Assembly: GCA_963795855.1 (NCBI GenBank)
Contig: CAWCIZ010000004.1
Location: 1-64,000 of the forward strand
Length of the DNA: 64,000 nucleotides
Reading direction: 5' to 3'
Source: Vulcanimicrobiota bacterium
GTDB lineage: Bacteria > Vulcanimicrobiota > Vulcanimicrobiia > Vulcanimicrobiales > Vulcanimicrobiaceae
Shown: positions 5-56,423 of the stretch, one piece after another
Position numbering within the stretch: position 1 is the stretch's first letter
How the letters are laid out: every line of letters starts with the position of its first letter
Notes under the pieces: model-generated
Told to the model about the DNA's origin: nothing
The model's database searches: none
Seen by the model: the letters and a program-made list of their open reading frames with translations, nothing else
Made by a program: the position numbers and the translations under genes

Positions 5-601
5 TTGGATTTCTTGGTGAAGACGCCAGTTCGAGAGATTCGCGCCTTCGACGCAGATTGGTTCCACGTACATAACGCCTTCAGGTCCCCGGGAAGATTG
101 GAGTCTTCCGAGCTTGGCAAGACGAAAGCTGCCGTATATCAGGGAAGATATGAGAATTTTCGACTCGGGCTTTCAATCGGACCGAAATTCATTGATCGGT
201 CCGATGAAACGGCCTTGCGAGGCGTCACATTCGCCTTCGTGTGCGTTGACAAGGGCTCGTCGCGATCCGCGATCTTCGATTTATTAATTGCGCAAGGTAT
301 TCCGTTCATTGACGCTGGAATGGGGCTTGATCGTAAGAGAGGGCCGATCAACGGAATGCTTCGAATGACGCATTACTCTGCTGAATCAGGACCACAGACT
401 CGCGACAAAGGTTATGACCCGCTTACGGATCGCCCGGACGACGTTTACAGAACAACGATTCAAATCAGCGAGCTTAATGCGTTGAACGCATCCCTCGCCG
501 TCATTCGGTTCAAACAACTTCGAGGTTTCTACTACGAAGAAGTTTCTGACGTAAACCATTTATTTGAGATACGCGATCTCAAGATAGCAGGCGGAGAATA
601 A
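5..601 (+). CDS. ThiF/E1-like adenylyltransferase, C-terminal part (5' truncated by window)
   Basis: FDADWFHVHNAFRSPG...GKTKA...FAFVCVDKGSSR...PFIDAGMG motifs typical of the ThiF/MoeB/E1 family. Confidence 0.8.
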   Translation: MDFLVKTPVREIRAFDADWFHVHNAFRSPGRLESSELGKTKAAVYQGRYENFRLGLSIGPKFIDRSDETALRGVTFAFVCVDKGSSRSAIFDLLIAQGIPFIDAGMGLDRKRGPINGMLRMTHYSAESGPQTRDKGYDPLTDRPDDVYRTTIQISELNALNASLAVIRFKQLRGFYYEEVSDVNHLFEIRDLKIAGGE

Positions 602-604
602 CGC

Positions 605-1006
605 ATGGCAAGATTTGTGTTGCAGCATGTTCACTACATGCCAACAGAAATTGCGCCTGGTGTCCTTTACGTCTCCGAGGAATTTCGCATTGCTATCCAC
701 CTATGTGCTTGCGGATGTGGGGCAAAGATTAAGACGCCACTTGGGCCGACGGAATGGTCTATTACAGAGACCGATCGAGGTCCGAGTGTTTGGCCGTCGA
801 TAGGTAACTGGCAACAAACTTGTCAATCCCACTACGTTATTTCGCGCGGCGGAGTTAAATGGGCCGGCAAATGGACCCCCCAGCAAATCGCCGCTGGGCG
901 TCGCCGCGAGGAGGAACGGCGACGCGAATATGAAGCGACGTATAATAAGAAGCGTGGAGTCTTAGGACGGTTCTGGGATACCGTGAAGAACCTGCTTCGA
1001 TTGTGA
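605..1006 (+). CDS. DUF6527-like Cys/His protein
   Basis: PGVLYVS...HLCACGCG...PSVWPSIGNW...CQSHY; directly follows the ThiF gene. Confidence 0.7.
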   Translation: MARFVLQHVHYMPTEIAPGVLYVSEEFRIAIHLCACGCGAKIKTPLGPTEWSITETDRGPSVWPSIGNWQQTCQSHYVISRGGVKWAGKWTPQQIAAGRRREEERRREYEATYNKKRGVLGRFWDTVKNLLRL

Positions 1007-3115: not shown

Positions 3116-3898
3116 CTAGAGCCATCGTCTATCGATCATGCTAGCGAAGATTCCGAGTGCGCGCTGTTGGGAACTTCGACGCCGATCTGTGGCAATGGCG
3201 TATGCTTTGTCAGGAAAGGAATGGTCGAGCGCATTGAGAGCAGGGTTGGCCTTTACTGCGGACCTCATCGACTTCCACTTGGGCCAGACCGAATTTAATT
3301 CGTCGATGATGAATATCGGAATCTCGCAATTCGTGCGACATTTTATTCCGAATGCATCGCGTTCTTCGGCCGTGGCTTCGGGCGGCGCAGTGCGCGTAAA
3401 CTTCCAAGAGTATGATTCTGGAAAGTTAGATTGCTCTTCCGCCATCGTTGCAAAGAGATCTTTGAGCGTGCTGGCGTTAACAAGGCCGACGACGATGGGT
3501 GCTGCGCCTGCGAGTGACTCTAAAGCGTCACCTTGAATACGAGATTTGAGCGTCCGGCGCCAAAGTACACCAACCGCATCCGAAAAGTGGCCGGCGGCAT
3601 ATAGCGCGACGAGCCCATTGCACCAGGTGATCCCCGATAAGCGTAGCGCTTCACCGATATCCCACGCGACGAACGGACCGGGACGGAGCTTCTGATCAAT
3701 ATACCGGCGGAGCATCCGTTCCGCGTTAGCGGCGCGTCGAAGTTTCGACTTGGACTTCAGTTTGTGCACTTTGGCAAAGTTCGACGCGAGGGTGAGCATC
3801 GACACGGCCTTTCCCCGCCCCACTAGTTTGCGGAGAAATGTTGAAAACCGGACACCATGTAGCAAATTTGTCCCCGACATCCTACGGGTTCCGGGCAT
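3116..3898 (-). CDS. hypothetical protein, possible N-terminal HTH regulator divergent from the Xis-like gene
   Basis: 260-aa ORF; ERMLRRYIDQKLRPGPFVAWDIGEAL resembles an XRE-type HTH; divergent arrangement. Confidence 0.4.
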   Translation of the reverse strand: MPGTRRMSGTNLLHGVRFSTFLRKLVGRGKAVSMLTLASNFAKVHKLKSKSKLRRAANAERMLRRYIDQKLRPGPFVAWDIGEALRLSGITWCNGLVALYAAGHFSDAVGVLWRRTLKSRIQGDALESLAGAAPIVVGLVNASTLKDLFATMAEEQSNFPESYSWKFTRTAPPEATAEERDAFGIKCRTNCEIPIFIIDELNSVWPKWKSMRSAVKANPALNALDHSFPDKAYAIATDRRRSSQQRALGIFASMIDRRWL

Positions 3899-3983
3899 TG
3901 TTCCGCTTTCGAGTTGTCATCCAGCGCTTCGTTGGCGGGTTTACCGGCGCATTTCCTGCGCGCTTAAATCATGACAGGTTTAT

Positions 3984-4295
3984 ATGCAATCTGTCATCTT
4001 GCAGAGTCAGCCAAACGCCGCTATGCTCAGCCCAGGCAGTGAGGGAGATCGAATGATTACAGAATGCGACTTCCCGCACCGAACTCAACGGGATACGCTT
4101 ACGATAGGTGAAGCCGCGGAGCGCCTTGGTATAACAATTGAGCTCGCCAGAAAAGCGGCTCGCGCTGGCGACCTTCCAGCGATCAAGTTTCGCGGGCGGT
4201 TTCTGATCCTTCGCAAGCAATTCGATCGGATGTTAGAGCTCGAGGATGTCGCTGACGCTTCTGCTTTTGACGCCGCGCAAAAGGCCTCGCACTAA
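3984..4295 (+). CDS. excisionase-like HTH (HTH_17/MerR-like) DNA-binding protein
   Basis: TLTIGEAAERLGIT...ARAGDLPAIKFRGRFLI. Confidence 0.75.
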   Translation: MQSVILQSQPNAAMLSPGSEGDRMITECDFPHRTQRDTLTIGEAAERLGITIELARKAARAGDLPAIKFRGRFLILRKQFDRMLELEDVADASAFDAAQKASH

Positions 4296-4374
4296 CAGCG
4301 AGGTCTCTTATTATGTCGCGATACAGCGAGAGGAGATAGGACCAACAACTTAGCTGACGTGTTTGTCGCCTTAA

Positions 4375-4558
4375 ACCGGCCTACGACAGGCACGAAAACT
4401 AGAAAGCCTTTACGACTGGAATCGCAAGGCTTTCCTTAGGCCGGTACCGCGACTGTTCCTGAAAAGAGAGGCGCGGAACTATTGAACCTGTCCATAGGAT
4501 AGCACCTAGGGACGAGGAGGGCAACATGCTCCCTCAACTAGTCGCGCTCCAAGCGCGA
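4375..4558 (+). promoter_or_regulatory. multi-stem structured leader upstream of tnsA
   Basis: Perfect pairings 4375-4383/4437-4445, 4402-4410/4426-4434 and 4448-4454/4540-4546, the last enclosing three hairpins. Confidence 0.55.
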
Positions 4559-4636
4559 ATTAGCGACGACGTAAAGCATGGCGCTGCCCATGCTTCGGAA
4601 ACAGTTCAGGCTGCGGCCAGCGCGTATGGGCGTTAG
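4526..4636 (+). CDS. putative 36-aa leader peptide overlapping the tnsA start
   Basis: GAGGAG RBS then ATG at 4526; TAG at 4634-4636 lies just inside tnsA (ATG 4626). Confidence 0.45.
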   Translation: MLPQLVALQARISDDVKHGAAHASETVQAAASAYGR

Positions 4637-5277
4637 AAAAGTCGGGCCTAATCGGCGCAGCGTTACGGGTCACGTTCCAAGCAAGAAGAAACCAGGGCTT
4701 GTCGCGTTCGAATCAACGCTCGAACGCGATTTCATCATGCTTCTTGAATTCGATCCAGCGGTAAGAACCATAGCCGAACAGCCTATACGGGTCGTATATG
4801 ACGCCGGCAGCTACACGCCGGATTTTTATGTCGAGTTCCATGGTCGTCATGCGCAACCACTTCTAGTAGAAGTAAAATACCGCGATGACCTCTTCACGTC
4901 ATGGAAAGAGCTGCATCCGCGGTTCAGGGCGGCAATGCGATACGCTCGAACCAGCGATCGCCGTTTTAAAATTCTAACGGAATGCGAACTACGAACTACG
5001 CGGCTGCGGAACGTAAAACATCTATGGCGGTACCGCACACTTGAAGTAGATCGGGAGCTGATGTGATCGTATCGTCGCGGATCTGAAAGTTACCGGTCCA
5101 ACTACTATCGAGCAACTTCTGGAAACCATGCGTATCCAAGTAGCCGAGCGAAATGCAGTAATACCGGTAATATGGCATCTAATCGCGATCACCGTAATAT
5201 CTGCGAACCTCGATGACCAGGAGCTGACGCTGCAATCCATGATTGCAATTCAGCAGAACGAGTCAGGCCAAAGTTGA
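4626..5277 (+). pseudogene. tnsA: TnsA endonuclease (frameshift near 5062)
   Basis: MGVRKV...SVTG...FESTLERDF...EQP...YTPDF...VEVK; the C-terminal domain (VIWHLIA...NLDDQELT) continues in another frame from 5065 to the stop at 5277. Confidence 0.85.
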
Positions 5278-7052
5278 TTGCGCGGCCTGACGGTTTAACG
5301 CCAGACTCGCAGCTCGCGTCGCTCATGGAAGTACCTACTCAGGAATCGCCGCAAGATGAAATGCCCGAGGCGGCAGATCGCCCAGAACTCCCGCCTACAC
5401 ATACTATTCCGATACGCGAATGGGAAAAGGCCTGCGCACGACGTGACGCGATCCGAGCGGCCTTTGAAGCGGGTCCTCCGTATTTGCCTCATCTTCGCGA
5501 AGCGAGCGAAAAGACCGGTTGTAGCATCGCCACCCTCTATCGCCATCTTAACCGCTACAGCTACACTCGAGATACGCGTTCTCTTCTCGATCGCGGCAAG
5601 GGCGAACCGCGCCGCTCACGTCTGCATCCCAAAGTTCTGTCTATCATTCGCGAAAAGTTCCAGACGCGCTTCCTATCGGTGGAAAAGCTAAAGCCCTCAG
5701 AGATAAGTTTCGAGGTACGCGCGGAGTGTTGGCGGCAACAGTTACCTCTTCCTCACGCAAACACCGTTCGCAACCACATCCATAAAATGAGGGCGCAATT
5801 GGGTGAGCGCCGCGTTCAAATGAAACGAGGAAATAAGAAGATGGCTGAAACGATGTTTACCCCACGCCACGGCTCTTTCAATGAACACGACAGGCCAGGC
5901 GAGCTTGTCCAAATCGACCACACCAAACTTGACGTGGTACTTGTTGACGAAGATCAGCGCCTGCCCATTGGGCGCGCGTTCATCACAGTTGCGCTCGACG
6001 TTGCAACCAGAATGGTTATTGGATTGTGCATCTCATTAGACCCAGTGGGAACGCTGTCGACTGGCCTTTGTCTGTATCACGCGATGCTTCCAAAGGATGC
6101 CTGGTTGAAAGAACGTGATATCAACAACGTGTGGTCCAGCGTCGGAATGCCCGAGGCACTGCATTTTGACAACGCCAAGGAATTTCTCGGAAAGACGGTC
6201 CAACGGTTTTGCGAAGCGAATGATATTCGCATCGAGCATCGCCCTCTTGGCGTGCCGCATTACGGAGGCCATATCGAGCGACTCATCGGGACACTAAATC
6301 GCGCAATCCATAAAATTCCCGGGGCGACGTTTGCGAACATTCAGGAGCGCGGTGATTATGATTCCGAGGCATATGCGTGCATGACACTGCGAGAATGCGA
6401 AACGTACGTAGCAGAATGGATTACTGGGACGTACCATCGCCGAGTCCATGCTGGCTTGGGATGCACACCGAACGCTGCCTTCGATAGGGCGATGAACTCA
6501 CCCGATAATCCGTGCTTCGGTAAGCCACTGCCGAGCGATTTAGAAAAGGCGCGGCTTGATCTCTTGCCATGGGAGTACCGCACGGTACAAAAGACCGGCA
6601 TCACGTGGGACAAGCTCGTGTATGTCGGAGAGGTTCTCGGCCCGTATACGAATACTACCAATCCTGACGGCACAAGTAAGCAGTTCATCGTCGCTCGCGA
6701 TCCGCGAATGATCAATCAGGCGTACTTCTTTGCGCCTGATGTAAACGAGTACTATGTTCTAAAGCTTCGCAATCCGACGAGGCCGCACGTGAGCAAATGG
6801 GAATGGGACGAACTGCGCCGGCGTCTCCGCAAGGACGGAAAAGCGGACGAGGACGAGGATGCGATTTTCCAATCTCATTTCAAGCAACAGCAGATGATCG
6901 ATGCAGCGGTTTCCAAGACGAGGGGAGCGAGGCGCGAAAGAGAGCGTAAACGGCATCATGCGAAGGCCGTCATATCAGAACCGCCACGTGCCGCAGAACA
7001 AACAGAGTGGGAGACAGACGTAGAGCCGCTCGAAGGAGCGCGAGCATGGTAG
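5274..7052 (+). CDS. tnsB: TnsB/TniA DDE transposase (Mu-like)
   Basis: QIDHT, ALDVATR, HFDNAKEF and GHIERLIGT catalytic motifs; N-terminal HTH. Confidence 0.95.
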   Translation: MIARPDGLTPDSQLASLMEVPTQESPQDEMPEAADRPELPPTHTIPIREWEKACARRDAIRAAFEAGPPYLPHLREASEKTGCSIATLYRHLNRYSYTRDTRSLLDRGKGEPRRSRLHPKVLSIIREKFQTRFLSVEKLKPSEISFEVRAECWRQQLPLPHANTVRNHIHKMRAQLGERRVQMKRGNKKMAETMFTPRHGSFNEHDRPGELVQIDHTKLDVVLVDEDQRLPIGRAFITVALDVATRMVIGLCISLDPVGTLSTGLCLYHAMLPKDAWLKERDINNVWSSVGMPEALHFDNAKEFLGKTVQRFCEANDIRIEHRPLGVPHYGGHIERLIGTLNRAIHKIPGATFANIQERGDYDSEAYACMTLRECETYVAEWITGTYHRRVHAGLGCTPNAAFDRAMNSPDNPCFGKPLPSDLEKARLDLLPWEYRTVQKTGITWDKLVYVGEVLGPYTNTTNPDGTSKQFIVARDPRMINQAYFFAPDVNEYYVLKLRNPTRPHVSKWEWDELRRRLRKDGKADEDEDAIFQSHFKQQQMIDAAVSKTRGARRERERKRHHAKAVISEPPRAAEQTEWETDVEPLEGARAW

Positions 7053-7948
7053 ACAATTCGGGCGACGATCTCAACCACCTTACCGGCGAGGCTGCCGCGC
7101 AGGCGAAACTCGATAACGATACGAGGATCGCTTTAGTCCGAGAGCGCTTGTGGATTCCTACGAAGCATACCCTGCGAATTCATCGCCGACTCGAATATCT
7201 GCTGTCGCATCCAAAGACGAGCAGTATGCCGAATCTGTTGCTTGTCGGTCTCTCGGGAAGTGGCAAAACCACCCTCATAGAGGAATTCTTGGCTCGACAT
7301 CCTCGTTATGAGGACGAGGCGCAGGAATGTTCGCGTATTCCGGTCGTCTTCTGTAATGCGCCGCCCGAGCCTGACCTCGGTGGTTTTTATAATGCGATCT
7401 TGGGCGGCATGGATCTCCCCGCAGATAACAAGCGCATCGACATGCGTCGTCTCCATGTCGAAGACATGCTTGACGCCGTCCATGCGCAACTGTTAATCAT
7501 GGATGAGATTCAGCAGTTTCTCCTGGCTGGCACCAAGATGCAGCGCATCCTCCTGACGGCGCTCAAGAGTTTGAGTAATGCCCTGGACATCCCGATCGTT
7601 GCGGTTGGTACACGCGAGGCATTGAGCCTATTCGGAGAAATCGACGCACAAATCGCGCGGCGGTTCGAAAAGGATGAAATCCCCAAGCTTACGTTCATCC
7701 GCGAATTTGCCCGATTACTGAAGACCTTTGAAACCCTTATCCCGCTAAGGAAACCGTCGAACCTCACAGAGCACAGTATGGCGCTCCGGCTGTTTGAAAT
7801 GTCACGCGGCACCATCGGCCGGCTTGCCAGGACACTCTCGGAAGCGGCAGTCTTCGCAATCGAGGACGGCGACGAGCGAGTCACTCTAGAGATACTGAAG
7901 AAAGTTATGACAGCGGAAATCTACGGGTCCGGCGATCCAGCCGCATGA
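7007..7948 (+). CDS. tnsC: TnsC/TniB AAA+ ATPase
   Basis: Walker A GLSGSGKT, Walker B LLIMDEIQ, QIARRF; follows tnsB. Confidence 0.93.
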   Translation: MGDRRRAARRSASMVDNSGDDLNHLTGEAAAQAKLDNDTRIALVRERLWIPTKHTLRIHRRLEYLLSHPKTSSMPNLLLVGLSGSGKTTLIEEFLARHPRYEDEAQECSRIPVVFCNAPPEPDLGGFYNAILGGMDLPADNKRIDMRRLHVEDMLDAVHAQLLIMDEIQQFLLAGTKMQRILLTALKSLSNALDIPIVAVGTREALSLFGEIDAQIARRFEKDEIPKLTFIREFARLLKTFETLIPLRKPSNLTEHSMALRLFEMSRGTIGRLARTLSEAAVFAIEDGDERVTLEILKKVMTAEIYGSGDPAA

Positions 7949-9216
7949 GCGGCCGCAATAAGTGCCATAGCCTTCTGCTGGGACATACGGCACCGCGCGA
8001 CGACGAGCTGTTATCGTCATGGCTTGTTCGGCTCGCTGCGCAAAATCGGATGAAGCTGCACTCCTTTTGCAAGATGCTCTGGCCGGGAGCTGCGATTTGG
8101 AATCGCGACATCGATAATTCTGTTACACCGGAACTACTCGGTGTACTGGCGGAGCGAACGGGCGTCGACCTGAAGCGGGCAAGTGAGACCGCACTCAAGT
8201 CCTACGAAGGGTTCATCTTCGAGAAGCACAACCCAAACGGGACGACAATCTGGATATTACCACTGGGAATCTACCACAGAACGCGCCTTCGATTTGGATT
8301 GCACTACTGCCCCGATTGCCTCGACCAAGGGATGGTTTACTACCGTAAGATTTGGCGACTGGCGTGGAGCGTCATGTGCGTGGAGCATAACAGACCTCTT
8401 CTCGATAGGTGTAGGTGCGGCTCCCCCATCGTTTTTCATCGTGGCGACCTCGGCGATAGTCAATCGGTCGGCACAGAGCTCGGGCTAACGAAATGCCATC
8501 ATTGCAATGCTGACCTGAGGCGCCTTCAGGGCGGCGCGTGCGATATTTCGCTGACATGTGCAGCGCTCGAAACTCAAAGGACGTGTATGGCAGCCCTAAG
8601 AGATGGCTATATCACGGTAGCCGCTGAGCGCATCGAATCGGTCTTGTTCTTCGCAGGCTTTAGACAATTGCTCCAAATTCTCGCGCACGGTCGGCTCGCT
8701 GTACAACTAAGAGATGCAGGCGCTCCGTGGCGACGTTCCCTACCCGACGTCTCTTTCACAAGCGGCCGAAATTCCAATGTTGAGCGGCTTGCCGTCGAGG
8801 ATCGAACCGTGCTAATGGCTCTAGCGGGCGAGTGGCTTTGTGACTGGCCGGGATCATTCGTTACCAGCTGCAAGAAAGCCGGTTTGACCGCGACGGACAT
8901 CTGCCGCAACATGCGTTACGTGCCATACTGGCTAGCAAAGGTCGTCGACGAGCATTTCGGTTCAGGGACGTATAGTCCGTGTATCGATGAAATAGCCAGT
9001 GCAATAAGTTATCTGCGCAACCGCCAAGAGCCCACCACGAAGACGTCGGTGTCTAAGATGCTTGGAAGAACGGACGTCTTTCGAAAAAGACACTCCACTT
9101 TCTACTGGATGAGCCACAAGACGACGTTTCATCAACAATCAAAGCTGAAAGTAGGTGACGCGATATGGACTCAATATTGCCGTTTCATGCCAAACCAAAG
9201 CCCGATGAAATATTAA
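7945..9216 (+). CDS. tniQ: TniQ/TnsD-family target selector 1
   Basis: DELLSSWLVRLA, YCPDCL, WRLAWSVMCVEH and LLDRCRCG zinc-binding motifs; ATGA overlap with tnsC. Confidence 0.92.
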   Translation: MSGRNKCHSLLLGHTAPRDDELLSSWLVRLAAQNRMKLHSFCKMLWPGAAIWNRDIDNSVTPELLGVLAERTGVDLKRASETALKSYEGFIFEKHNPNGTTIWILPLGIYHRTRLRFGLHYCPDCLDQGMVYYRKIWRLAWSVMCVEHNRPLLDRCRCGSPIVFHRGDLGDSQSVGTELGLTKCHHCNADLRRLQGGACDISLTCAALETQRTCMAALRDGYITVAAERIESVLFFAGFRQLLQILAHGRLAVQLRDAGAPWRRSLPDVSFTSGRNSNVERLAVEDRTVLMALAGEWLCDWPGSFVTSCKKAGLTATDICRNMRYVPYWLAKVVDEHFGSGTYSPCIDEIASAISYLRNRQEPTTKTSVSKMLGRTDVFRKRHSTFYWMSHKTTFHQQSKLKVGDAIWTQYCRFMPNQSPMKY

Positions 9217-10310
9217 GTTCCTGGATTATTCGAATCGCCAGCGCGAATGGGCTCGCCCCCGAGTCTTTGACGTCAGAGCGCTGGGATCGCGATCTTGACT
9301 CGAATCCAGCGAAATCACTGCTGCGACGGTTAGCAGCTTTGACTGGCGCGACAGTCGCGGCAGTCGCCGCGACGACACTTGAATCCTATGAAGGGACCCT
9401 GTTCGAATCACGGTCGGACAGTTCGCTGCCGCAATGGATTTTGCCGCTCGGAATCTTCGGCGATAAACGACGCGGCTATGGTATGCAATTATGCGCTCTA
9501 TGCCTCGAAGCGGACCCGTATTTTAAAAAGGCCTGGAGACTGGCGCTTAGCGTCGCATGCTGTGAGCACCGGGTACTGCTTCGGGACCGTTGCGCTGGCT
9601 GCGGCAGACCAATTACCTATCACGACCTTCCGCGCGTTCGAAGAGCTGGACGACTGCAACCGCTCATGGCATGTCCTGGTTGCAAAAGCTTTTACACGAA
9701 CTCGAGCGGACTCGTAGCTGCTGCGCCCGACATCCTTGAAGCGCAGGGAACGCTGAATGACGCCATGGACTGCGGATTTGCAACAATCAATTCTGAGCCG
9801 GTGCATGCGTTGCTGTTCTTTCAAGGCCTCCGTAGCATGATTGGCACGATGATTACAGGTAAGCGGAGTACGGGCTTGCGCGCTGCTATTTCCCAATCCG
9901 GAACGACTGTAGCGGCGGCATCGGGTTGGCGTAAGGGCGAGCGTTTCGAATTTCTCAACGTGGAAAAGCGCGCCGAGATCTTACATTTGATTCCGCGCTT
10001 GCTGGAGGACTGGCCACACAAGTTTGTTGCTGCCTGTCGTACAGCACGAATTCGTCGGTCCGATTTGCTGAATGGATACCGTTCGGTGTCGACTATTCCG
10101 TACTGGTATGCGTGCCAGATTTCTAAAATGACCAAGGCGCAATATAGGATGAATAGCCAAGAGATTTCGGCAATACTACGCTATGCTGAGTCCCAAGACC
10201 GAGAACCGCTCGAAACGCTTCGTTCGCTATTCGGAAGCATGGGCAATCTAGGTAATCAGAAGCAACTATTCGCTAATGCCCGAGCACTAGGCTGGTGCAA
10301 AGCGAGCTGA
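9165..10310 (+). CDS. tniQ: TniQ/TnsD-family target selector 2
   Basis: PKPDEILSSWIIRIA, LCALCL, WRLALSVACCEH, LRDRCAGCG. Confidence 0.92.
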   Translation: MDSILPFHAKPKPDEILSSWIIRIASANGLAPESLTSERWDRDLDSNPAKSLLRRLAALTGATVAAVAATTLESYEGTLFESRSDSSLPQWILPLGIFGDKRRGYGMQLCALCLEADPYFKKAWRLALSVACCEHRVLLRDRCAGCGRPITYHDLPRVRRAGRLQPLMACPGCKSFYTNSSGLVAAAPDILEAQGTLNDAMDCGFATINSEPVHALLFFQGLRSMIGTMITGKRSTGLRAAISQSGTTVAAASGWRKGERFEFLNVEKRAEILHLIPRLLEDWPHKFVAACRTARIRRSDLLNGYRSVSTIPYWYACQISKMTKAQYRMNSQEISAILRYAESQDREPLETLRSLFGSMGNLGNQKQLFANARALGWCKAS

Positions 10311-12144: not shown

Positions 12145-13231
12145 TTACGATTTCACAAGACGGATCGTTCGGTCGTTCCCATGGCGAACTTTACCCCGGC
12201 CTCCCCCGGGTAATCCCGTCACAACAAGCCCAAAAACCACCGCATCAAGATCCTCAAGATTGCATTTTAGATCGCGAGCGACGTCCGCTTTTGTTATTCC
12301 CTCGCTACGGAGCATTTGAAAAACCTTTCCAAGAACGAGCGACATTTCTGGTGACGCTGGCTCCGGCTCATCGGTGCGGTAGCCTCGCTGAGACATTTCA
12401 ACACACAGAGTGCGATAATGCCAATCCGAAATTAAGCTTTAGGGCGTGAAGGCGATACGCGAGCGCTGCTACGGAAACAATCCATTGCTTCTTCAATTGG
12501 ATCAGCGCGCTTAAACTTGGAAACACCGGGGCCCGTTCCAATATACTGCTGCGCGGCATTAAGAACGCCGAGGCGAACCGATTGGCTTCATGCTCGGCTT
12601 GTTTGCCGTGCACGCCGGCCTCTCGGTGCAGCACTAAATGTCCCAATTCGTGAGCGGCGTCAAAGCGACTATGTTCAGCGGATTTCAACGTATTCAAAAA
12701 GACAAATGGAGTCGCGTCTCTCCAGAGTGAGAAGGCGTCGACATCGGTACTCTCCGCCATCGAAAACACGCGAACACCCTTCGACTCAAGCAGATGGACG
12801 ATGTTACGTACGGCCTTTTCCCCAAGACCCCACTCATGCCGAAGGGTGATAGCTGCCGTTTCCGGGTCCTCTTGTCGAAGATCTGGCAAATCACAAGGCG
12901 GCAATGCGAAACGGCGTTCCATCCAGTCATGAAGCAGCATAGCAATTGCGCCCGACGCCAACGCGGCCTCACGCGTAGATGCCGTCATTCGAGCCAACGA
13001 GCGGAAACTGGCCGTCTCCGCGGTTGGCTCATGCAAATCGTCTCCGAAAAAGAAGTCCACCGGAAAGGTTAACGCTTCCGCAAGACGCGCGGCCGTCTCG
13101 GCCGTCGGACTATACTCGCCGCTTTCATAAGCCGAGATGGCTCGCAAGATCACACCAGCACCTTCCGCAAGGCGCGTTTTACTGTAACGTCGCTTCTTGC
13201 GGGCCACGCGAAGACGGGAAGGATTAAACAT
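12145..13231 (-). CDS. XRE-HTH + ImmA/IrrE (COG2856) zinc metallopeptidase; frameshift near 12420
   Basis: MFNPSRLRVAR HTH; RFDAAHELGHLVLH (HExxH); EANRFASAFLMP; C-terminus continues in ORF 12145..12396. Confidence 0.85.
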
Positions 13232-13235
13232 TTCG

Positions 13236-13907
13236 CTAGGCCCGGCGGCGTATGTCGATGTCCACGTCCGGACCGAAGTCGGGCTCGAATGTCTTCCTGT
13301 AAGCATCTCCATCAAACGGAATCACCGGCAAGATGATTCGCTCTTTCCAGCCGACTATTTGGCCGCTTTCGATGAACACGGGCAAAGAAAGTTCGGATCT
13401 GATTTCCTGAATATCGTTGTGAAAAAGCAGCGTCCAAGTGGCTATGTTACTGCCATCGCGGCTCGAGCGCACGGGCGCCGGCGCTGGCAAATTTGGAAAA
13501 AGTGCGATCTGTGTTGCGTTGGACGTAACATAGACTTCCGTGCACGGGCCCTTGGTGTGCTTTGTGCTAGGTGTTTCGCTCGGGATTCCAGTGCTTTCGT
13601 TGCCCGAGGAAACGCAAATCGCGATCGTACCGTTGGGATTGACCGTGGTCGGCAGCCCGTTGTCGTTATTTCGATGCCATCCCACCGCAACCAAGTGCTC
13701 GCGGAGCGCGCGAAGGGTATCGTTCCACTGATAAAATCCGTGAGCGATCGGCGCATCGTTGAGCGTCCTCGATATGCGCGATACATGGCCGGCGCGCACC
13801 GCCTCGAGTAGCGGCGCAACGCTCAAGCCCAGCCGTGCTAAGGCGATATGGACCTCACGCGGGTCCCACCAGACTGCCTCTTGCAAAGTGCAACTCCCGG
13901 GCGACAA
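13236..13907 (-). CDS. hypothetical protein upstream of the HTH-peptidase, putative toxin partner
   Basis: 223-aa ORF ending 4 bp before the peptidase start; TWTLL...EIRSELSLP...WKERIILP. Confidence 0.6.
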   Translation of the reverse strand: MSPGSCTLQEAVWWDPREVHIALARLGLSVAPLLEAVRAGHVSRISRTLNDAPIAHGFYQWNDTLRALREHLVAVGWHRNNDNGLPTTVNPNGTIAICVSSGNESTGIPSETPSTKHTKGPCTEVYVTSNATQIALFPNLPAPAPVRSSRDGSNIATWTLLFHNDIQEIRSELSLPVFIESGQIVGWKERIILPVIPFDGDAYRKTFEPDFGPDVDIDIRRRA

Positions 13908-14146
13908 CGCCCATCTACCGATTATGCTACATCATTTGATGTTGAAAAACAAGTAGACGGCTCGTTCCGTCCTCGCAGCGCCTCGGGAGTGCCGGCGCCG
14001 AGGCAATTCCGCGCACGAAAGCGCACTCCTAGACTTCCGCGGCGAGGCTCGACGGAGCACCGTATCGCCTTCGTGGGAAAATTCAAGAGGGTTTTACGAA
14101 CGCGTGAGGCGGCCTGAGGGCCGATTTCGACGGAGAAAGGAATAGC

Positions 14147-14611
14147 GTGCCGGATCCGATTGGTATGACGGCAGTACAGGAGCCGTGGCGATATGGTTTT
14201 GGCGAGGAAGGCGATCCGATCGACAGTGTCGTTGCGATCGCGTTCAAGTCGGGCGATTTGGACGCCGTGCGTGAGATGTTCCGAGACCTGGCCATTGCGA
14301 TCCGATTGCACATCCCAGAGAAGGGAGCGCCGCATTATATCGTCATGGCTACCGGCGGCGTTGCGCAGGCCGCAGAGGTGCCATCGAATATTCTTTCGCG
14401 GCTCGGAGGCATCATTGAAGTAACTACCGTGCTGGAAGCAGGCGTCGATCGATTTCAATTACCGGCTTCGCTGACAACTTGCGCTTTGATCGCAAATTTG
14501 ATCGGCATTGAGCCTGCGACGTCGTATGCGGTCCCAATGGCGTACGCTGCGGCTCCCCTCGCGCCTGCGGAAGTCGTAGCTCGTGACCGCCCGCATCAAT
14601 CCACTGATTAA
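14147..14611 (+). CDS. hypothetical protein
   Basis: 154-aa ORF with upstream AAGGA RBS. Confidence 0.4.
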   Translation: MPDPIGMTAVQEPWRYGFGEEGDPIDSVVAIAFKSGDLDAVREMFRDLAIAIRLHIPEKGAPHYIVMATGGVAQAAEVPSNILSRLGGIIEVTTVLEAGVDRFQLPASLTTCALIANLIGIEPATSYAVPMAYAAAPLAPAEVVARDRPHQSTD

Positions 14612-14644
14612 AGCTATGGCCTCGTTAATTAAAGCGCAGATCGA

Positions 14645-15658
14645 GTGGGTCGGTCACTATACGACATCGCCGACAAGCCATGGGTGGATGTTTCGCAAGC
14701 AAGCCGGCTGATATTCATGACGCTGTCGGTAGAACAGGCGCGTGCGGCGTTTCAGAACGCAATACCGCGTGGCCGCGACGAGTTTGAGAAAAAGGCCCGC
14801 GATCGGTTGCGAACCATCGCTTACGAATCAAATTATCCGCAGAAGTATCCCATCGAAGTGCTTGAAATGGCGCAGGCGGAAGTGCGCCTTCGGCACGAAA
14901 TGGCGGCACATCGCGTAAAGCAATTGCTTGACTCTGGCTGGCGGCCACATTCCGAATACGTGAGTGCGATACGCGCAACCTTCATCGATATGTTCGCTGG
15001 ATTCGACCACTGGAAGAAAGATCCGTCGTCTGATTTGTATCACCGCGTGGAAACGGCATTTAGAGAGGTCGGTCGCCACGATGAAGATCAGCAGTTGAGG
15101 CATCGCCGTGCTCTCGGTGAGGTTCAAGTAGAAGCGGCAAATGAGGCGGTTTCGGACCTCGAAATGCATGCAGGAGTACTCATGCCTTTGGTTGCCGCGT
15201 CTATAAAAAGCGACGGTTTTCCGATAATTACGGCGCCAGCAGAAGTGGAATGGAAGTACGATGTGTTTATTAGCCATGCGTCCGAGGATAAAGCGTCGTT
15301 TGTAAATGCATTGGCAAGCGCCTTGCGCGAGCGCACAGTTAACGTGTGGTTCGACGCATTTACCTTAAAATTGGGTGATAGTCTACGCGAGACGATTGAT
15401 GAGGGTTTACGCACTTCGCGGTATGGTATTGTCGTGCTCAGCAAAGCGTTTTTTGCGAAGCAATGGCCGAAGTTAGAGCTTGACGGACTAGTGGCGCGTC
15501 AGACTGGGGACGGGCAGAAAGTGATTTTGCCTGTGTGGCATGACACCTCATATGAAGACGTTGCTTCTTATAGTCCTATACTTGCGGGGCGCCTTGCCGC
15601 GAAGTCTGCAGACGGCTTAAAGAAAGTGGTTGATGATGTTCTGGAAGTGATTCGCTAA
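14645..15658 (+). CDS. C-terminal TIR domain protein
   Basis: YDVFISHASEDK...VWFD...GDSL...IDEGL..SRYGIVVLS..FF.KQW..LEL. Confidence 0.92.
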   Translation: MGRSLYDIADKPWVDVSQASRLIFMTLSVEQARAAFQNAIPRGRDEFEKKARDRLRTIAYESNYPQKYPIEVLEMAQAEVRLRHEMAAHRVKQLLDSGWRPHSEYVSAIRATFIDMFAGFDHWKKDPSSDLYHRVETAFREVGRHDEDQQLRHRRALGEVQVEAANEAVSDLEMHAGVLMPLVAASIKSDGFPIITAPAEVEWKYDVFISHASEDKASFVNALASALRERTVNVWFDAFTLKLGDSLRETIDEGLRTSRYGIVVLSKAFFAKQWPKLELDGLVARQTGDGQKVILPVWHDTSYEDVASYSPILAGRLAAKSADGLKKVVDDVLEVIR

Positions 15659-17599: not shown

Positions 17600-17845
17600 C
17601 GTCGGGCGATCGTGGAGCTCCCAGGTCTTGAAGCGTTATGACATTACTCATAAAAAAGTGCTCCACCGCGGCCACGCGAATCGGGAGAGGGGTCGGGCGG
17701 CATAGGGCCCGCGGTCGCCCAGGATGCGGGACAGGTTGGTTATATTCCGTATCTTGTCAGTATGGTGAATATGGCGTATATTGCCTATGGGCGAGTATAT
17801 CACCCCAGGCTGCTTTTCGCACAAGAAAGGTCAACAACTCGGCCT

Positions 17846-18766
17846 ATGAATCCCACCGAGGTCGAATTCGCCGTCAAAGCGCTGATCTCCAAGCCGTATG
17901 ACCCTGCGACCTTTGCATATGATCTAATCGCCATCTACAACACGCCGAAGATCACGGTGGGCAAGCTTAAAAGTGGCCAGACCAACGTCGCTACAGCGCG
18001 GGGTGATCTACTCTGGAAGAAGCATCTGTTCTTCCGTCCGGCCGCGTCTACTGATGACGTGGCGGCCGTCGCCGACGCTTTGGCTTCGGATGCGCTGACG
18101 AAAAAATATAAGCCGCGCTTCGTCCTCGTTACTAATGGTGAACAAGTCCACGTGCGAGACCTTACACTGGACGAAACGTGTAATACCGAATTTGCTCGCC
18201 TAGATGAGTCGTCGGATTTTTTGGGGCCACTAGCCGGCTTCGAACGCCGCGCCGCTGCCGTCGAACACCCGGCGACGGTGAAAGCGACCAAACGTCTCGC
18301 AAAACTTTATGACGCGATTCTTGCGGCCAATCCGACGTGGAGCGACGGCAATCACACACATGAGTTGAACCTGTTTATGACCCGTATCCTTTTCTGCCTT
18401 TATGCGGAAGATACCGGCATCTTTGATACGCCGCAGATTTTTTCTAATACAGTCGCACAGTATACGAAAGAAGATGGTAGCGACGTCTGCGCCCCTGTTA
18501 GATCGCCTGTTCCGTGTAATGAATGTCCCCGAATGGAACAGGGCGCCGGCTATCCCCAAGATCGAGGCTCGCTTTCCGTTCGTAAATGGCAGCTTGTTTG
18601 AGGCTACGCTCCCGATACCAGAGTTCAATCGTACGGCTCGGCGGCTCTTCCTCGAGTGTGGCGAACTCGATTGGAAAACAATCAACACGGACATTTTCGG
18701 TTCGATGATTCAAACGATTGCCGAGCCGGGGTCGCGAGGCGACCTAGGCATGCATTATACGAGCAT
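17846..18766 (+). pseudogene. MmeI-like/YeeA type IIL RM methyltransferase, N-terminal remnant truncated by IS3
   Basis: LNLFMTRILFCLYAEDTGIF, FPFVNGSLF and DW..IN.DIFGSMIQ...LGMHYTS, then the IS end; frameshift near 18490. Confidence 0.88.
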
Positions 18767-18806
18767 TGAAGTTGCCCGGCTCTCGTGGAGAGTTTTAGAT
18801 TGGAAA

Positions 18807-19649
18807 TCACGCCGCGGTTTCCCGCTCATATGCGGCGGGAGAGCGGTAGCCCAGAGCTGAGTGGCGACGATGCCGATTGTACCAGCCCTCGATGAAGTCG
18901 AAGATAGCAAGTTCGGCTTCCTTATGCGTGCGGAACCGGTTCCGATCGAGTAGTTCGCATTCGAGCGTCGCATTGAAGCTCTCGCACATCGCGTTGTCGT
19001 AGCAATCACCAACTGAACCCATCGACGGACGAACTCCAGCTTCCCGGCACCGAGATCCGAAAGCAATCGAGGTGTATTGCGTTCCTTGATCGGAATGATG
19101 AATGACGCTTTCGGGCCTACGACGTTCAATCGCCATGTTGAGCGCATCGAGTACAAGTTGCGTGCGCATGTTCGAGCTCATTGCATAGCCGACGATTCGG
19201 CGGCTAAACGCGTCGAGAACGACTGCAAGAAACAAGAACCCGGCGTAGGTTGGGATGTACGTGATATCAGCAACCCACAGTTTGTCTGGTGCGTTAGCGA
19301 TGAATTTTCGATCGACAAGATCCGGTGCGGGTCGAGCATCTCGATCACGCACGGTCGTCCGAACGCCCTTACGGCGGCTTGCGCCTACGAGATTTCGCTC
19401 GTTCATGAGTCGCGCAAGTCGGTCGTTGCTCAGGGTAATGCCCTCGTCTTTCAACTCGGCCTTGATGCGTGGTCGACCGTACGTGTTGCGAGAGCGTCGA
19501 TGAATTGCCTCGATGCGATCACCAAGTTCAATGTCGCGCCGCGCTTGCGCTGACGGTGGACGATTGAGCCACGCATAGTACCCGCTGGCGGAGACCTCCA
19601 GAACCCGGCACATCGTGGAAATGTGGAATTTGGCCTGGTAGCTCTTCAC
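18807..19649 (-). CDS. IS3 transposase OrfB (rve integrase core)
   Basis: WVADITYI, HHSDQGTQY, DNAMCESF, YNRHRRHSALG. Confidence 0.95.
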   Translation of the reverse strand: MKSYQAKFHISTMCRVLEVSASGYYAWLNRPPSAQARRDIELGDRIEAIHRRSRNTYGRPRIKAELKDEGITLSNDRLARLMNERNLVGASRRKGVRTTVRDRDARPAPDLVDRKFIANAPDKLWVADITYIPTYAGFLFLAVVLDAFSRRIVGYAMSSNMRTQLVLDALNMAIERRRPESVIHHSDQGTQYTSIAFGSRCREAGVRPSMGSVGDCYDNAMCESFNATLECELLDRNRFRTHKEAELAIFDFIEGWYNRHRRHSALGYRSPAAYERETAA

Positions 19650-19963
19650 GAGTCGGAAGATTTCTTGGGGATCACGTCGGTCTCCCGAGCAAACCAGGCC
19701 GCGGCTTTTGACAAGATTTCATTCTCGATCGTGAGTCGCTTGTTTTCACGTCGAAGTTTCGAGAGTTCTGCTCGTTCTTCGCTGGTCAATCCGTCGGTGC
19801 GCTTGCCAGTATCGAGATCGACCTGCTTTTCCCAATTGCGAATCGTTTGTGGTGCAAGCTCGAATTCGGCGGCCAACTCATCTATGCGGCGACCGGTACG
19901 CAGCAGTTCAAGAACTTTATGCCGGAAGTCCGGCGGGTAGGAGTGCGGACGCTTTTTGCCCAT
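19646..19963 (-). CDS. IS3 transposase OrfA
   Basis: YPPDFRH...LAAEFEL..QTIRNW HTH; LRRENKRL..ENEILSKAAAWFA. Confidence 0.92.
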   Translation of the reverse strand: MGKKRPHSYPPDFRHKVLELLRTGRRIDELAAEFELAPQTIRNWEKQVDLDTGKRTDGLTSEERAELSKLRRENKRLTIENEILSKAAAWFARETDVIPKKSSDS

Positions 19964-20017
19964 TGGTGGACCCTTCTCCGCCAAAGCGGAAGTGTCCACG
20001 AGAGCCGGGCAACTTCA

Positions 20018-21325
20018 CTTGGCATTGGATATCACTTTTATAGTGGGTCCTATTTAGAGGCCATCGATGAGGTCCTCGATACAACGAAAAAAACGATCAT
20101 CCACATCCCCAACGTTAACTCCGCGGAAACGCCGATGGAAAAGACCCGCCAAGTCGATACCATGCTCGAAAAAATGGCTGGCGGCGACTCGAGTTTTGTT
20201 GAACGCAACGCTACCACGGGCTTCTATCACGTTACTTGCCCGGACGGCCGCCTACTAAAAGTAGCAGATCTCGTCGACGATAGCCCTTATCGCGAACAGG
20301 TGCTCGAAAGTTTGCGCAGCGTTGAGCATCGCGAGGACTTGGACCTGATCATTGCGTTAGGTATGGCGAAGGAAGGCTTCGATTGGGTGTGGTGTGAGCA
20401 TGTCCTGACGGTAGGCTATCGCAACTCGATGACCGAGGTGATCCAAATAATCGGTCGAGCGACGCGCGACGCCGAGGGCAAAACGCATGCACAGTTTACG
20501 AATCTCGTCGCAGAACCGGTCGATGACCGCGCCGTTGTGGTAGACGCCGTCAATAACATGCTGAAGGCGATCTCGTGTGCGTTAATTATGGAGCAAGTAC
20601 TTGCGCCAAACTTTAACTTTCAAACTCGAACGCCCGATGCTGCCCCTGAAGTCCCCGGCCCGGGCGTTCCGATCGAGATTCGTGGCTTGCAGGAGCCGTC
20701 AACCGACCGGGTGCGCGATATCGTACAAGATCAGCTCGATGAGTTAAAGGTACACGTCCTAAATGATCCGCATATCCAAACGGCGATTATCCATCCTGAC
20801 GCGTTTACGCCGGCGGAAATTAATACGGTGCTTATTCCGCGTGTTATCGAACGCACGTATCCGGAGCTAACAGACGAGGAAGCGAATCAAGTCAGGCATG
20901 CACTTTTGCTTGACATTAATTTCAAGAACGCGGTCGCGCCGGATCCATCTGCTCCAGGGACCGCTACAGCAGATGAAATTGAAACGCGGCGCGAAGGTGA
21001 AAATGTTCTCATCAAGCTCGCAAAAAGATTTGTCAACCTCGACGAGCTGTCCATTGACCTGATCGACAGCATTAACCCCTTCGAACACGCCTACGAAATC
21101 TTGGCGAAACATCTTGATGAGCGCGTGCTGCGCACAATTCACAGCACCGTAGTCGCCGGCCGGTTACCCATGAGTGATGAAGAAGCGGCGCAGTTGTGGC
21201 CGTCCATAAAGGCATTCGTTTTCAGCCGCGAGCGGGAGCCGAACCTCAACGCACAAGATCCAAGGGAGCAGCGCCTCGCGCATGGTCTCGCGATCATCCG
21301 CGCTGCCAGGAGGGCAGCTGAACGT
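20018..21325 (+). pseudogene. YeeB-like SF2 helicase, C-terminal remnant (N-terminus lost at the IS)
   Basis: KKTIIHIPNVNS, IIALGMAKEGFDW, QIIGRATRD; no Walker A present. Confidence 0.8.
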
Positions 21326-22564
21326 ATGAAGGACAGAAGCTCGCCCTTTGCGGCAATTTTTGCGGAGGACGATGAACTCGGATTGCTCGCTAGTAAGCGT
21401 TCCGCTCCCGGTTCTTCGACCGAAGACGAGATAACCGTTGCGCAGTTTGAAGCGATTAATGCTTTCGTCGACGAGAATGGGATTCTCCCGGGTTCGACCG
21501 ATGGTGGGCGGGAACCAGGCCTGAACGAGTATACTCTCGAGGCGTATCTCGATGCATTCCGCAACGGCATTGCGTACCATAGTCTTCTGGCCCCACACGA
21601 TCGCCATGGATTGCTCACGAAATCCGGCGCTAACCGGATGCCGGCTACCCTGTCCGAAATCATCGCGTCGAACGATCCGCTCCTCGAATCCGCCGAGCAG
21701 ATTTTTGCATTGCATCATGTTGCCGCTGCAAGCTCCTCGAAACTGAAGCCAGACGAAATCGCTAAACGGCGACCGTGCGAGCATTTCGAGCAGTACGCCC
21801 CGATTTTTGCGATGTTGAACGCGGAGCTCGCGAGCGGTCTGCGCATTACGAAACGTTTCGAACGCGAAGGGAGTATTGTTCCCGGCGCTGCCTTTATCCT
21901 GAATGGAATCATCGCGTATGTAGCGGACGTAAGCAGCCCGCAGCGGCGTGGCAAAGAAACCGACGCGCGTACCCGAGTTATCTTCGACAACGGAATGGAA
22001 AGTAATCATCTTCTGCGCTCGTTCGCGCGAGTGTTGTACGAAGATGATAACGGCAGACAAATAATCGAGGCGGCGCCGTCCGTCGCTGGACCGTTGTTTA
22101 CCGGCGCTGATCCTGTGGGTGGCCCTCTTTTTACAGGGGAGGCGCAACGTGGCAGTCCGGAAGATCGCTATACCGGCAACATCTACGTCGTCGAAAGCCT
22201 ATCCACTGAACCCAGTATTGCAGCGCTCCGCGGCCGTCTTTTCAAAATTGGCTTTACTACGCAACAAGTTGAAAAACGGCTTGCGACCGTTCAAGTCGAT
22301 CCGACGTTCTTGCTCGCTCCCGTCCGCATCGTAACTGTATTTGAAACGGTGAACCTCAATCCGAAAAAACTCGAGCAGCTGATTCACCATTTCTTTGGCC
22401 ATGCGCAGCTTCAAGTTGATGTGTTACTCGGTCGTAAGGTGACCCCGCGGGAGTGGTTTGTTGTTCCTATCGAACTGGTGCGCGAAGCCATAAATCGCAT
22501 ACTCGATGGAACAATCCTGAACTATCGCTATGACCATATCAGCCGCAAGATTGTGCCGCGCTAA
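21326..22564 (+). CDS. YeeC-like GIY-YIG/T5orf172 protein (in frame with the upstream helicase remnant)
   Basis: DDELGLL N-terminus, R.RVIFDNGMES, GNIYVV...FKIGFT...VEKRL, P.KLE.LIH.FF, PREWF; own AGGAGG RBS. Confidence 0.85.
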   Translation: MKDRSSPFAAIFAEDDELGLLASKRSAPGSSTEDEITVAQFEAINAFVDENGILPGSTDGGREPGLNEYTLEAYLDAFRNGIAYHSLLAPHDRHGLLTKSGANRMPATLSEIIASNDPLLESAEQIFALHHVAAASSSKLKPDEIAKRRPCEHFEQYAPIFAMLNAELASGLRITKRFEREGSIVPGAAFILNGIIAYVADVSSPQRRGKETDARTRVIFDNGMESNHLLRSFARVLYEDDNGRQIIEAAPSVAGPLFTGADPVGGPLFTGEAQRGSPEDRYTGNIYVVESLSTEPSIAALRGRLFKIGFTTQQVEKRLATVQVDPTFLLAPVRIVTVFETVNLNPKKLEQLIHHFFGHAQLQVDVLLGRKVTPREWFVVPIELVREAINRILDGTILNYRYDHISRKIVPR

Positions 22565-56195: not shown

Positions 56196-56357
56196 GGAAA
56201 TCGTACACGTGCGTCGTTTGCAGAATACCCGAAAGAGCTTTGCTCCATCGAATTAGATCTGGACTTGAGACGGTGCTTAAATACGTGCGATTATGACGAC
56301 TTTCGCGCAAGTGTCGGAGATGATATGTGATTTGTTAAGTTAAGCCACCCATGGCGC

Positions 56358-56423
56358 ATTTCTCAACGGTAGGTCGATTTCTCACCGCTAAGTGTCGTTT
56401 CTCAAAGTTAAGTGTTTCTTACA
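56358..56423 (-). repeat. transposon end: three TnsB-binding-like repeats + terminal TGTAAGAA (minus strand)
   Basis: (A/G)TTTCTCA at 56358, 56377 and 56397 (19-20 bp period); end ...GTTTCTTACA at 56423. Confidence 0.85.

Follow-up and report, generated by a model that had tools for sequence, protein, structure and literature searches.

A structured leader ahead of tnsA in a comM-inserted Tn7-like transposon, and opposite-strand signals for a putative antisense RNA

What is the role of the strongly structured leader that lies between an HTH_17 gene (4053-4295) and the tnsA-tnsB-tniB-tniQ-tniQ operon of a Tn7-like transposon? The timing of transposase production in such elements is poorly known. 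The stretch of DNA analysed here (the window: 64,000 nucleotides) is the first 64 kb of contig C4 in genome G000. A preliminary description had proposed an RNA switch controlling translation of the operon. The idea proved right in part: the leader is conserved and covarying, with a sequestered ribosome-binding site (RBS) and a coupled upstream ORF (uORF), but a promoter and a terminator on the minus strand had been missed, and it is these which explain the invariant bases of the leader.

The host element has the TnsA, TnsB, TnsC and TniQ core and the comM insertion of Tn6022-like comM-targeting Tn7-like transposons. The comM gene is split into halves at C4:56420-57289 and C5:91024-91635, with one transposon end beside each; the end in the window (56350..56421) has three TTTCTCA repeats and a terminal ACA and adjoins the 5' half of comM, and the second end lies with the other half on C5 near 91630. 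The motif TGAGAAA/TTTCTCA is present in three copies per end and is absent from 4290-4640, so the leader stems were ruled out as transposon end or TnsB-binding sites. On the plus strand, tnsA (4626..5277; PF08722, E 3e-14, and PF08721, E 0.003, in a second frame) is followed by tnsB (TniA), tnsC (TniB) and two tniQ genes (5274..10310; Pfam domain scan). The tnsA frame is broken near 5064 (5050-5080), leaving an N-terminal part of 146 codons (4626-5066) and a C-terminal domain in another frame to 5277; the homologues are unbroken, at 220-233 aa. A crude frameshift check of 14 other G000 loci (3,977 aa) found none, although a nearby MmeI gene is broken, and either a true lesion or an assembly error is possible.

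Upstream, gene X (3116..3898, minus strand) diverges from the HTH_17 gene (4053..4295, plus strand; excisionase/AlpA-like, PF12728, E 2e-8). The gene X protein matched no Pfam family, and yielded 0 matches in the Atlas and 0 in Foldseek at E <= 0.001; its structure model was confident (pLDDT 88) and all-helical, with an XRE-like N-terminal fold and an unassigned C-terminal part, and its top structural matches were XRE/phage repressors, at a middling level (best Z 7.8, rmsd 2.3, 79 aligned). On this model it is probably a CI-like repressor. The family is present in 47 of 348 genomes, and a search of 1.84 billion representatives gave 215 relatives at E <= 0.001; gene X lies opposite HTH_17 in many loci, and translations suggest replication-type genes downstream in some of them. 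An inverted repeat between the two divergent genes (3971..3997) is a candidate operator, and is overlapped by a promoter-like site on the minus strand. A terminator-like hairpin, T-rich on both strands, is located at the HTH_17 stop (4278..4314). Just after it is an 8-codon ORF, MSRYSERR (4313-4339), which was not seen there in the homologues examined.

The leader is a real, conserved element. It extends over about 4359-4535 of the window and folds better than shuffled sequence on both strands (z -3.33 and -3.26); the segment 4358-4540 gave z of -4.66 (plus) and -4.01 (minus), 4537-4636 was at background (z -0.73), and one of 92 background windows of 180 nt reached z <= -3. Eight homologues were found, all from the window's bacterial family, and the nine members are kin, a single family. 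Three are of the tnsA type (the window and loci L008 and L009), and the other six precede an unrelated SWIM/DDE-type transposase, DDE being confirmed by Pfam in L010 and L039 only and the remaining SWIM/DDE calls judged from translations. With six of nine members outside tnsA operons, and no leader at 16 of the 19 full tnsA loci across 348 family genomes (the leader is present at three), the element is not specific to tnsA; many of the leaderless tnsA genes directly adjoin transposon end repeats.

Searching 401 genomes of the phylum at the DNA level returned three other members, matching 4394-4537 only. Covariance model R1 added L050 and L039 (58 sources), and L129 and L132 (44 sources); model R2 added L201 as its only strong new match (46.6 bits, 91 genomes) and gave nothing below E 0.03 on a set of 98 loci. 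The three best HTH_17 homologues among the 401 genomes are the three loci with the closest leader homologues. Identity among the tnsA loci is 74-86% in the leader, 58-66% in HTH_17 and tnsA and 25-42% in the uORF body. On a TnsA tree the leader needs two changes, and 36 of 500 shuffles were as low, so that a single origin was neither shown nor refuted (the leaderless L002, with its row in the alignment and tree, comes from unpublished genome G048). The closest leaderless TnsA relatives are L182 and L005 (~440-790, minus strand); by eye, the divergent ORF of L005 reads XRE-like, which suggests regulator swapping within one TnsA clade.

As to known families, Rfam 15 gave no gathering-score match in the window, and none to the plus-strand element at E <= 10 (four loci) or E <= 5 (six more); resemblances to T-box, c-di-GMP, pistol and HDV-like RNAs were considered and found no Rfam match. 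No match to the window leader turned up in plasmids or phages. Three viral pattern scans yielded 17, 1 and 3 matches, of which 0 passed model R1, and protein-anchored scans of viral contigs found nothing; a metagenome scan found two tnsA loci, both without the leader RNA. A genome-wide pattern scan gave 23 matches, comprising two true members and 21 that were negative with R1; the pattern fits only the four closest members, so distant relatives may exist elsewhere.

Transposases with a SWIM-like N-terminal zinc finger and a DDE_Tnp_1 domain form a group seen at L039 (1897-3144), L010 (1740-2714), L050 (2080-3144), L167, L168, L171-L175 and L201, and are often preceded by a small SWIM gene. The phrase 'SWIM zinc finger' had 0 occurrences in the top-ranked papers of one literature search.

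On the plus strand, the two perfect 9-bp stems described previously were confirmed (4375-4383/4437-4445 and 4402-4410/4426-4434). The element starts about 16 nt earlier than had been claimed, with a P0 hairpin (4359-4368/4384-4393; 4359..4393) whose loop holds the 5' arm of the outer stem, 4375-4383. The 3' arm (4437..4445) falls within the span of the predicted antisense RNA. Pairing of the arms is kept, with changing sequence, in 8 of 8 members and in a held-out member, and because the 5' arm occupies or borders on an upstream hairpin loop (in the window, L050, L039, L129 and L132), the outer stem probably pairs as a pseudoknot with that loop. A nested stem is cheaper than the pseudoknot in two of eight members (L008 and L010); against random partners the arm helix was good in five of eight and weak in L008 (36/275), L009 (22/276) and L050 (80/275). 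Because MAFFT placed the 5' arm wrongly, P0 and the arm helix stand outside models R1 and R2 and were scored by script.

Downstream of the arms are the P3 hairpin, CCGCG/CGCGG with a variable loop (4447..4476; 7 G.U versus 1 A.C cells on the plus strand), a single-stranded linker (4477..4487), which is a candidate ribosome standby site and the predicted target of the antisense 5' end, and the P4 and P5 hairpins (4487..4535), which sequester the Shine-Dalgarno sequence (SD) and the ATG at 4526. The linker has an unpaired probability of 0.69, which goes up to 0.86 when the pseudoknot arms are blocked, an opening that is clear in 3 of 8 members only. The SD, with an unpaired probability of 0.14, is sequestered as had been described, but not in the GAGGG/CCCTC register (probability 0); the hairpin folds instead as GAGG/CCUC plus GGGCA/UGCUC. 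P3 and P4 together favour the plus strand (13 G.U versus 4 A.C cells). In homologues, 19 of 32 leader pairs change on both sides versus 3-7 in slid controls, a count drawn from related sequences in an alignment (A9) fitted to the model, with one spurious partial row and with P3 double changes largely from one row; structural conservation, a check that the preliminary description had called for, is supported.

That description had also closed a multiway junction with the stem CGCGACT (4448-4454)/AGTCGCG (4540-4546). The letters are present, but the stem has an ensemble probability of 0 and a cost of 6.6 kcal/mol, and a conserved pairing, CCGCG (4447-4451)/CGCGG (4472-4476), takes its place. The junction is at most a minor conformer; 7, 6 and 5 of the 7 closing pairs are Watson-Crick in the three tnsA loci, and 4-5 of 7 in the other five members. 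Since in those tnsA loci the conformer is 3-7 kcal/mol less stable than the minimum, and since compensatory changes preserve it in L008, it may represent an off state specific to that clade. The hairpin described as its competitor (TCGCGCT/AGCGCGA, 4542-4558) is present.

On the minus strand, the P4 loop together with the bases that follow the SD spells out a sigma70-type promoter (4496..4524): a -35 box TTGCCC (4524-4519), a 17-nt spacer with a TG extension, and a -10 box TATCCT (4501-4496). All nine members share the TTG and TAnnnT without change, with only the middle bases varying; the spacer is 17 in six members and 18 in three, and the TG is kept in eight of nine. With a score built on general consensus weights and written after the motif was seen, this site was the best on the minus strand within 330 nt after HTH_17 in all six members tested, each beating 40 of 40 shuffles, and the same site was found in L129 and L132. 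After removal of duplicate loci and of loci with <250 nt downstream, p <= 0.025 was reached by 0 of 31 HTH-only control loci and by 8 of the 20 other loci that have X and HTH_17. The bare pattern is rare, at 0.03 occurrences per 330 nt in G000. Across 6.1 million positions of that genome there are 111 sites with a score >= 12; 55% of these fall in the 17% of sequence that is non-coding, and 32 of 111 lie upstream of genes (vs 13%). Minus-strand sites scoring equally (>= 12) lie upstream of 2 of 18 leaderless tnsA genes. A stock scanner listed neither the promoter (8/12 matches) nor the P2 terminator. Locus L201, found after the reading had been fixed, has the promoter, an 8-bp arm pairing and an ATGA-coupled SWIM uORF; the promoter was found in 0 of 5 weak R2 matches. 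A C4/P4-CI-type RNA, considered by eye, was dropped, its supposed 'loop' being the -10 box.

P2, the inner of the two 9-bp stems (GAAAGCC/GGCTTTC, 4402..4434), belongs with this promoter: over eight members its plus-strand cells include 11 A.C versus 1 G.U, which on the minus strand would be G.U pairs, and a U-rich tail runs on the minus strand to about 4393. For both reasons P2 is read as a minus-strand hairpin, and most simply as an intrinsic terminator of that strand, though other bases interrupt the U-tails, which in L009, L129 and L201 are weak. Promoter and terminator together predict an antisense RNA of ~95 nt (+1 A at 4489, to ~4395; 4395..4489, minus strand), with a 5' hairpin domain followed by the terminator. 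Its predicted length is 92-99 nt in 8 of 8 members, with +1 A in seven, and the 5' domain keeps its own closing stem in all eight. Both signals are present opposite the leader in 9 of 9 members; one stretch of ~130 nt has promoter and terminator on one strand and structures and RBS on the other. From these sequence signals we consider it very likely that the antisense RNA is made.

Could the plus strand act alone? The leader would then be a sense-only RNA switch, as in the preliminary description, alternating between pseudoknot and alternative stems under the influence of ribosomes terminating on HTH_17, of HTH_17 protein or of a ligand and so setting access to the RBS, and the minus-strand promoter would be incidental. 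In its favour, P3, P4 and the arm helix have a G.U bias on the plus strand, no more than ~25 nt separate the HTH_17 stop from P0 in L008, L050, L039 and L129, and the closing-stem conformer is compensated in L008. However, the invariant TTG, TG and TAnnnT at 17-18 nt and the minus-strand bias of P2 are left unexplained, and Rfam riboswitches gave no match; we regard this reading as unlikely.

Another use of the backwards promoter would be to express the repressor. Lambda P_RE is an establishment promoter of this kind, from which transcription here would read through P2, antisense to HTH_17, into gene X, the short RNA being merely an attenuated product. The geometry (repressor leftward, HTH_17 rightward, promoter pointing back), the XRE-like fold of gene X, the imperfect P2 U-tails and the promoter-like sites in the 8 of 20 other X and HTH_17 loci are all consistent with it. 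Nevertheless, a second two-way terminator-like hairpin (4278-4314) stands in the path, and L010 lacks X, L132 lacks an HTH_17 match and L201 lacks both, while all three retain promoter and terminator; the plus-strand covariation is also left unexplained. We consider an establishment promoter improbable, a little more so than the switch.

Between the leader and the transposase genes lies the uORF. In the window it encodes 36 aa (4526..4636, plus strand) and overlaps tnsA (ATG at 4626) by 11 nt; the GAGGAG at 4514-4519, the ATG at 4526 and the end at 4636 are all present as originally described. The uORF is no indel artefact, as L008 has the same -1 overlap with tnsA at the end of a 49-codon uORF. 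In all members the uORF starts just after the -35 box. Its anti-SD pairing is strong in the window (-10.6 kcal/mol, against -2.0 for tnsA) and ranges from -6 to -11 kcal/mol in eight members scored; leaderless tnsA genes, too, often have a weak SD (4 of the 9 parsed fell short of -4 kcal/mol), and the tnsA SD of L008 scores -6.3. In seven of nine members the uORF joins the next gene by overlap, direct abutment or fusion, and gaps of 4 and 8 nt separate the two in the others; the overlap is equal in the window and L008, the junction is ATGA or TAGATG in four, and in L009 the uORF is fused in frame with TnsA, with a TTG start. ORFs of 77-96 aa at the uORF position in L050, L129, L132 and L201 are SWIM-like, and the uORF is by sequence probably the remnant of a small SWIM zinc-finger gene: across members it ranges from 8 to 96 aa, in the window it has decayed to 36, and its sequence is unconserved. 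As these comparisons indicate, it is translation of the uORF that is conserved, not the peptide.

We therefore favour, with reasonable though not high confidence, a model of antisense control over a coupled leader ORF, carried in a repressor/HTH_17 cassette. The leader would be part of an mRNA that comes from the repressor/HTH_17 switch and continues across the uORF into tnsABC-tniQ. From the backwards sigma70 promoter in P4/P5, whose signals are seen, an antisense RNA of ~95 nt would be transcribed and end at the P2 terminator; it would pair with the leader from P2 to the foot of P4 and so repress translation of the uORF. Because the uORF has the strong RBS and overlaps tnsA, tnsA would be repressed along with it, the geometry of coupling being plain and its effect predicted. 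That the antisense RNA represses the downstream genes we think likely. Its +1 at 4489 leaves both the SD (4514-4519) and the tnsA ATG (4626) uncovered, and since it ends ~25 nt short of the SD it must act indirectly; constrained nested folding found no direct switch of SD accessibility, either on antisense binding (0.26 to 0.25) or with the pseudoknot (0.14 to 0.13). The most likely route would be for the antisense RNA to strip the P0-loop pseudoknot of its 3' arm and to cover the linker needed for 30S loading, a proposal we make only tentatively; alternatively, RNase III may cut the sense/antisense duplex. Indirect action of this sort has precedents in the pseudoknot competition of IncI1 plasmids, the pseudoknot-dependent translation of timPR and the blocked standby site of tisB. 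The outcome would be a threshold, in which leaky read-through gives no transposase and derepression out-titrates the antisense RNA.

If the SD stays uncovered and its predicted access unchanged, the backwards promoter might instead act by transcriptional interference, or its RNA by triggering termination within the leader (pT181-like attenuation), with no effect on translation; P2 also has short U-runs on the plus strand in L050 and L039. Against this, no conserved plus-strand terminator lies downstream, P4 and P5 having no U-tail, and the closing stem in the antisense 5' domain is kept in 8 of 8 members, which suggests that the RNA itself matters, so we hold this reading to be very unlikely. 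Least probable is a type I toxin-antitoxin pair in which the uORF would be the toxin: a short ORF, a sequestered RBS and an antisense RNA are also combined in timPR and tisB/IstR-1, according to the accessible parts of PMC11228461 and PMC6690012, but the uORF encodes no hydrophobic helix (best 19-residue hydropathy 0.16, 1.17 and -0.19), varies from 8 to 96 aa with unconserved sequence and is fused to TnsA in L009.

By analogy, the leader of the favoured antisense model resembles plasmid antisense/leader-peptide control and RNA-OUT/art200, and is a member of neither. In the accessible portions of the papers cited, IncI1/IncB plasmids (ColIb-P9 Inc-repY-repZ; pMU720 RNAI-repB-repA) have an antisense RNA transcribed opposite the leader and a coupled leader ORF (PMC8053102, PMC10724649), and in IncI1 a pseudoknot competes with antisense binding (PMC8053102). 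The transposon leader is alike in its opposite-strand antisense signals and its coupled leader ORF, and its conserved arm pairing may form a comparable pseudoknot. It is unlike them in that the controlled genes are TnsA or SWIM/DDE transposase operons, with no replication initiator, and in that 70-140 nt separate the pseudoknot from the SD downstream; neither Rfam nor plasmid sequences gave a match. Inc antisense RNAs target a hairpin loop, whereas the RNA predicted here would cover the downstream arm. In IncI2 (AS RNA-repR-repA), as excerpted from PMC8053102, the RNA is ~108 nt and the 19-aa RepR overlaps the repA start, and that paper reports no pseudoknot for IncI2. Like IncI2 and plasmid R1 (CopA-tap-repA), the leader is predicted to have an antisense RNA of ~100 nt and repression through a coupled leader peptide; unlike them, it has another target and sequence and follows a repressor/HTH_17 switch.

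Among transposons, the accessible text of PMC4513863 describes art200 of IS200 as 90 nt and places the tnpA SD in a stem-loop. As with art200 and RNA-OUT of IS10, the RNA here would be cis-antisense to a transposase mRNA leader, 9 of 9 members lying before a transposase operon; those RNAs, however, overlap the translation start of the transposase, whereas the RNA predicted here ends ~25 nt before the uORF SD, and the leader is internal, >4.3 kb from the element end. Translation in timPR depends on a pseudoknot (PMC11228461 and PMC13000454, in part), and in tisB/IstR-1 the sRNA blocks a standby site needed for the sequestered RBS (PMC6690012, in part). Unlike these toxin systems, the RNA here is fully cis-complementary and the product is no membrane peptide. 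The host element is like the Tn6022/AbaR-like comM-targeting Tn7-like transposons in having tnsA, tniA, tniB, tniQ and the comM insertion, as far as the excerpted PMC11406308 covers them, and unlike them in that tnsA is internal, behind a repressor/HTH_17/antisense cassette. The same CAST review names co-opted transcription regulators, and the word 'antisense' occurs in it 0 times; literature searches, with mostly open-access coverage, returned nothing relevant on antisense or leader control of Tn7-like elements.

With gene X opposite HTH_17 in many loci, and replication-type genes downstream in some, the cassette looks like an integrative-element switch that two transposase types have reused. 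In a bolder and rather doubtful extension, a portable cassette (repressor, HTH_17, pseudoknotted leader, antisense promoter and uORF) would have moved from SWIM/DDE to Tn7-like elements, its ~95-nt RNA acting in trans against the pseudoknot so that resident copies silence incoming ones. If true, this would amount to plasmid-style RNA copy-number control or immunity, with specificity from the variable P3 loop. As it stands, the locus offers a putative RNA-level brake that can be tested at exact coordinates, together with nine natural variants of a new RNA family; it is narrow, being confined to one bacterial family, and the control logic is already known from plasmids.

Several further observations were made at these loci. 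Shorter units after HTH_17, having a hairpin and a backwards promoter-like site and no full leader, were seen at L045 (~1750-1870), L047, L032, L033, L035, L036, L081 and L118, and may be simpler antisense units. In L010, where gene X is absent, four tandem repeats of ~14 nt and three of ~19 nt lie upstream of HTH_17 (965-1125) and are possibly end or operator sites. Tn7-like elements usually make a five-base target duplication; at the comM ends (window 56421 and C5 ~91627) only four bases, CCGC, are duplicated. Cargo at 2-2403, 12398-15658 and 31673-33148 is defence-like, with ThiF with DUF6527, RelA/SpoT, HTH_3-IrrE, TIR and AbiEii domains. The MmeI-like gene (17762-22564) is frameshifted and is also split by an inserted element (18807-19999), which we take to resemble IS3; an unbroken MmeI/helicase pair lies in L058.
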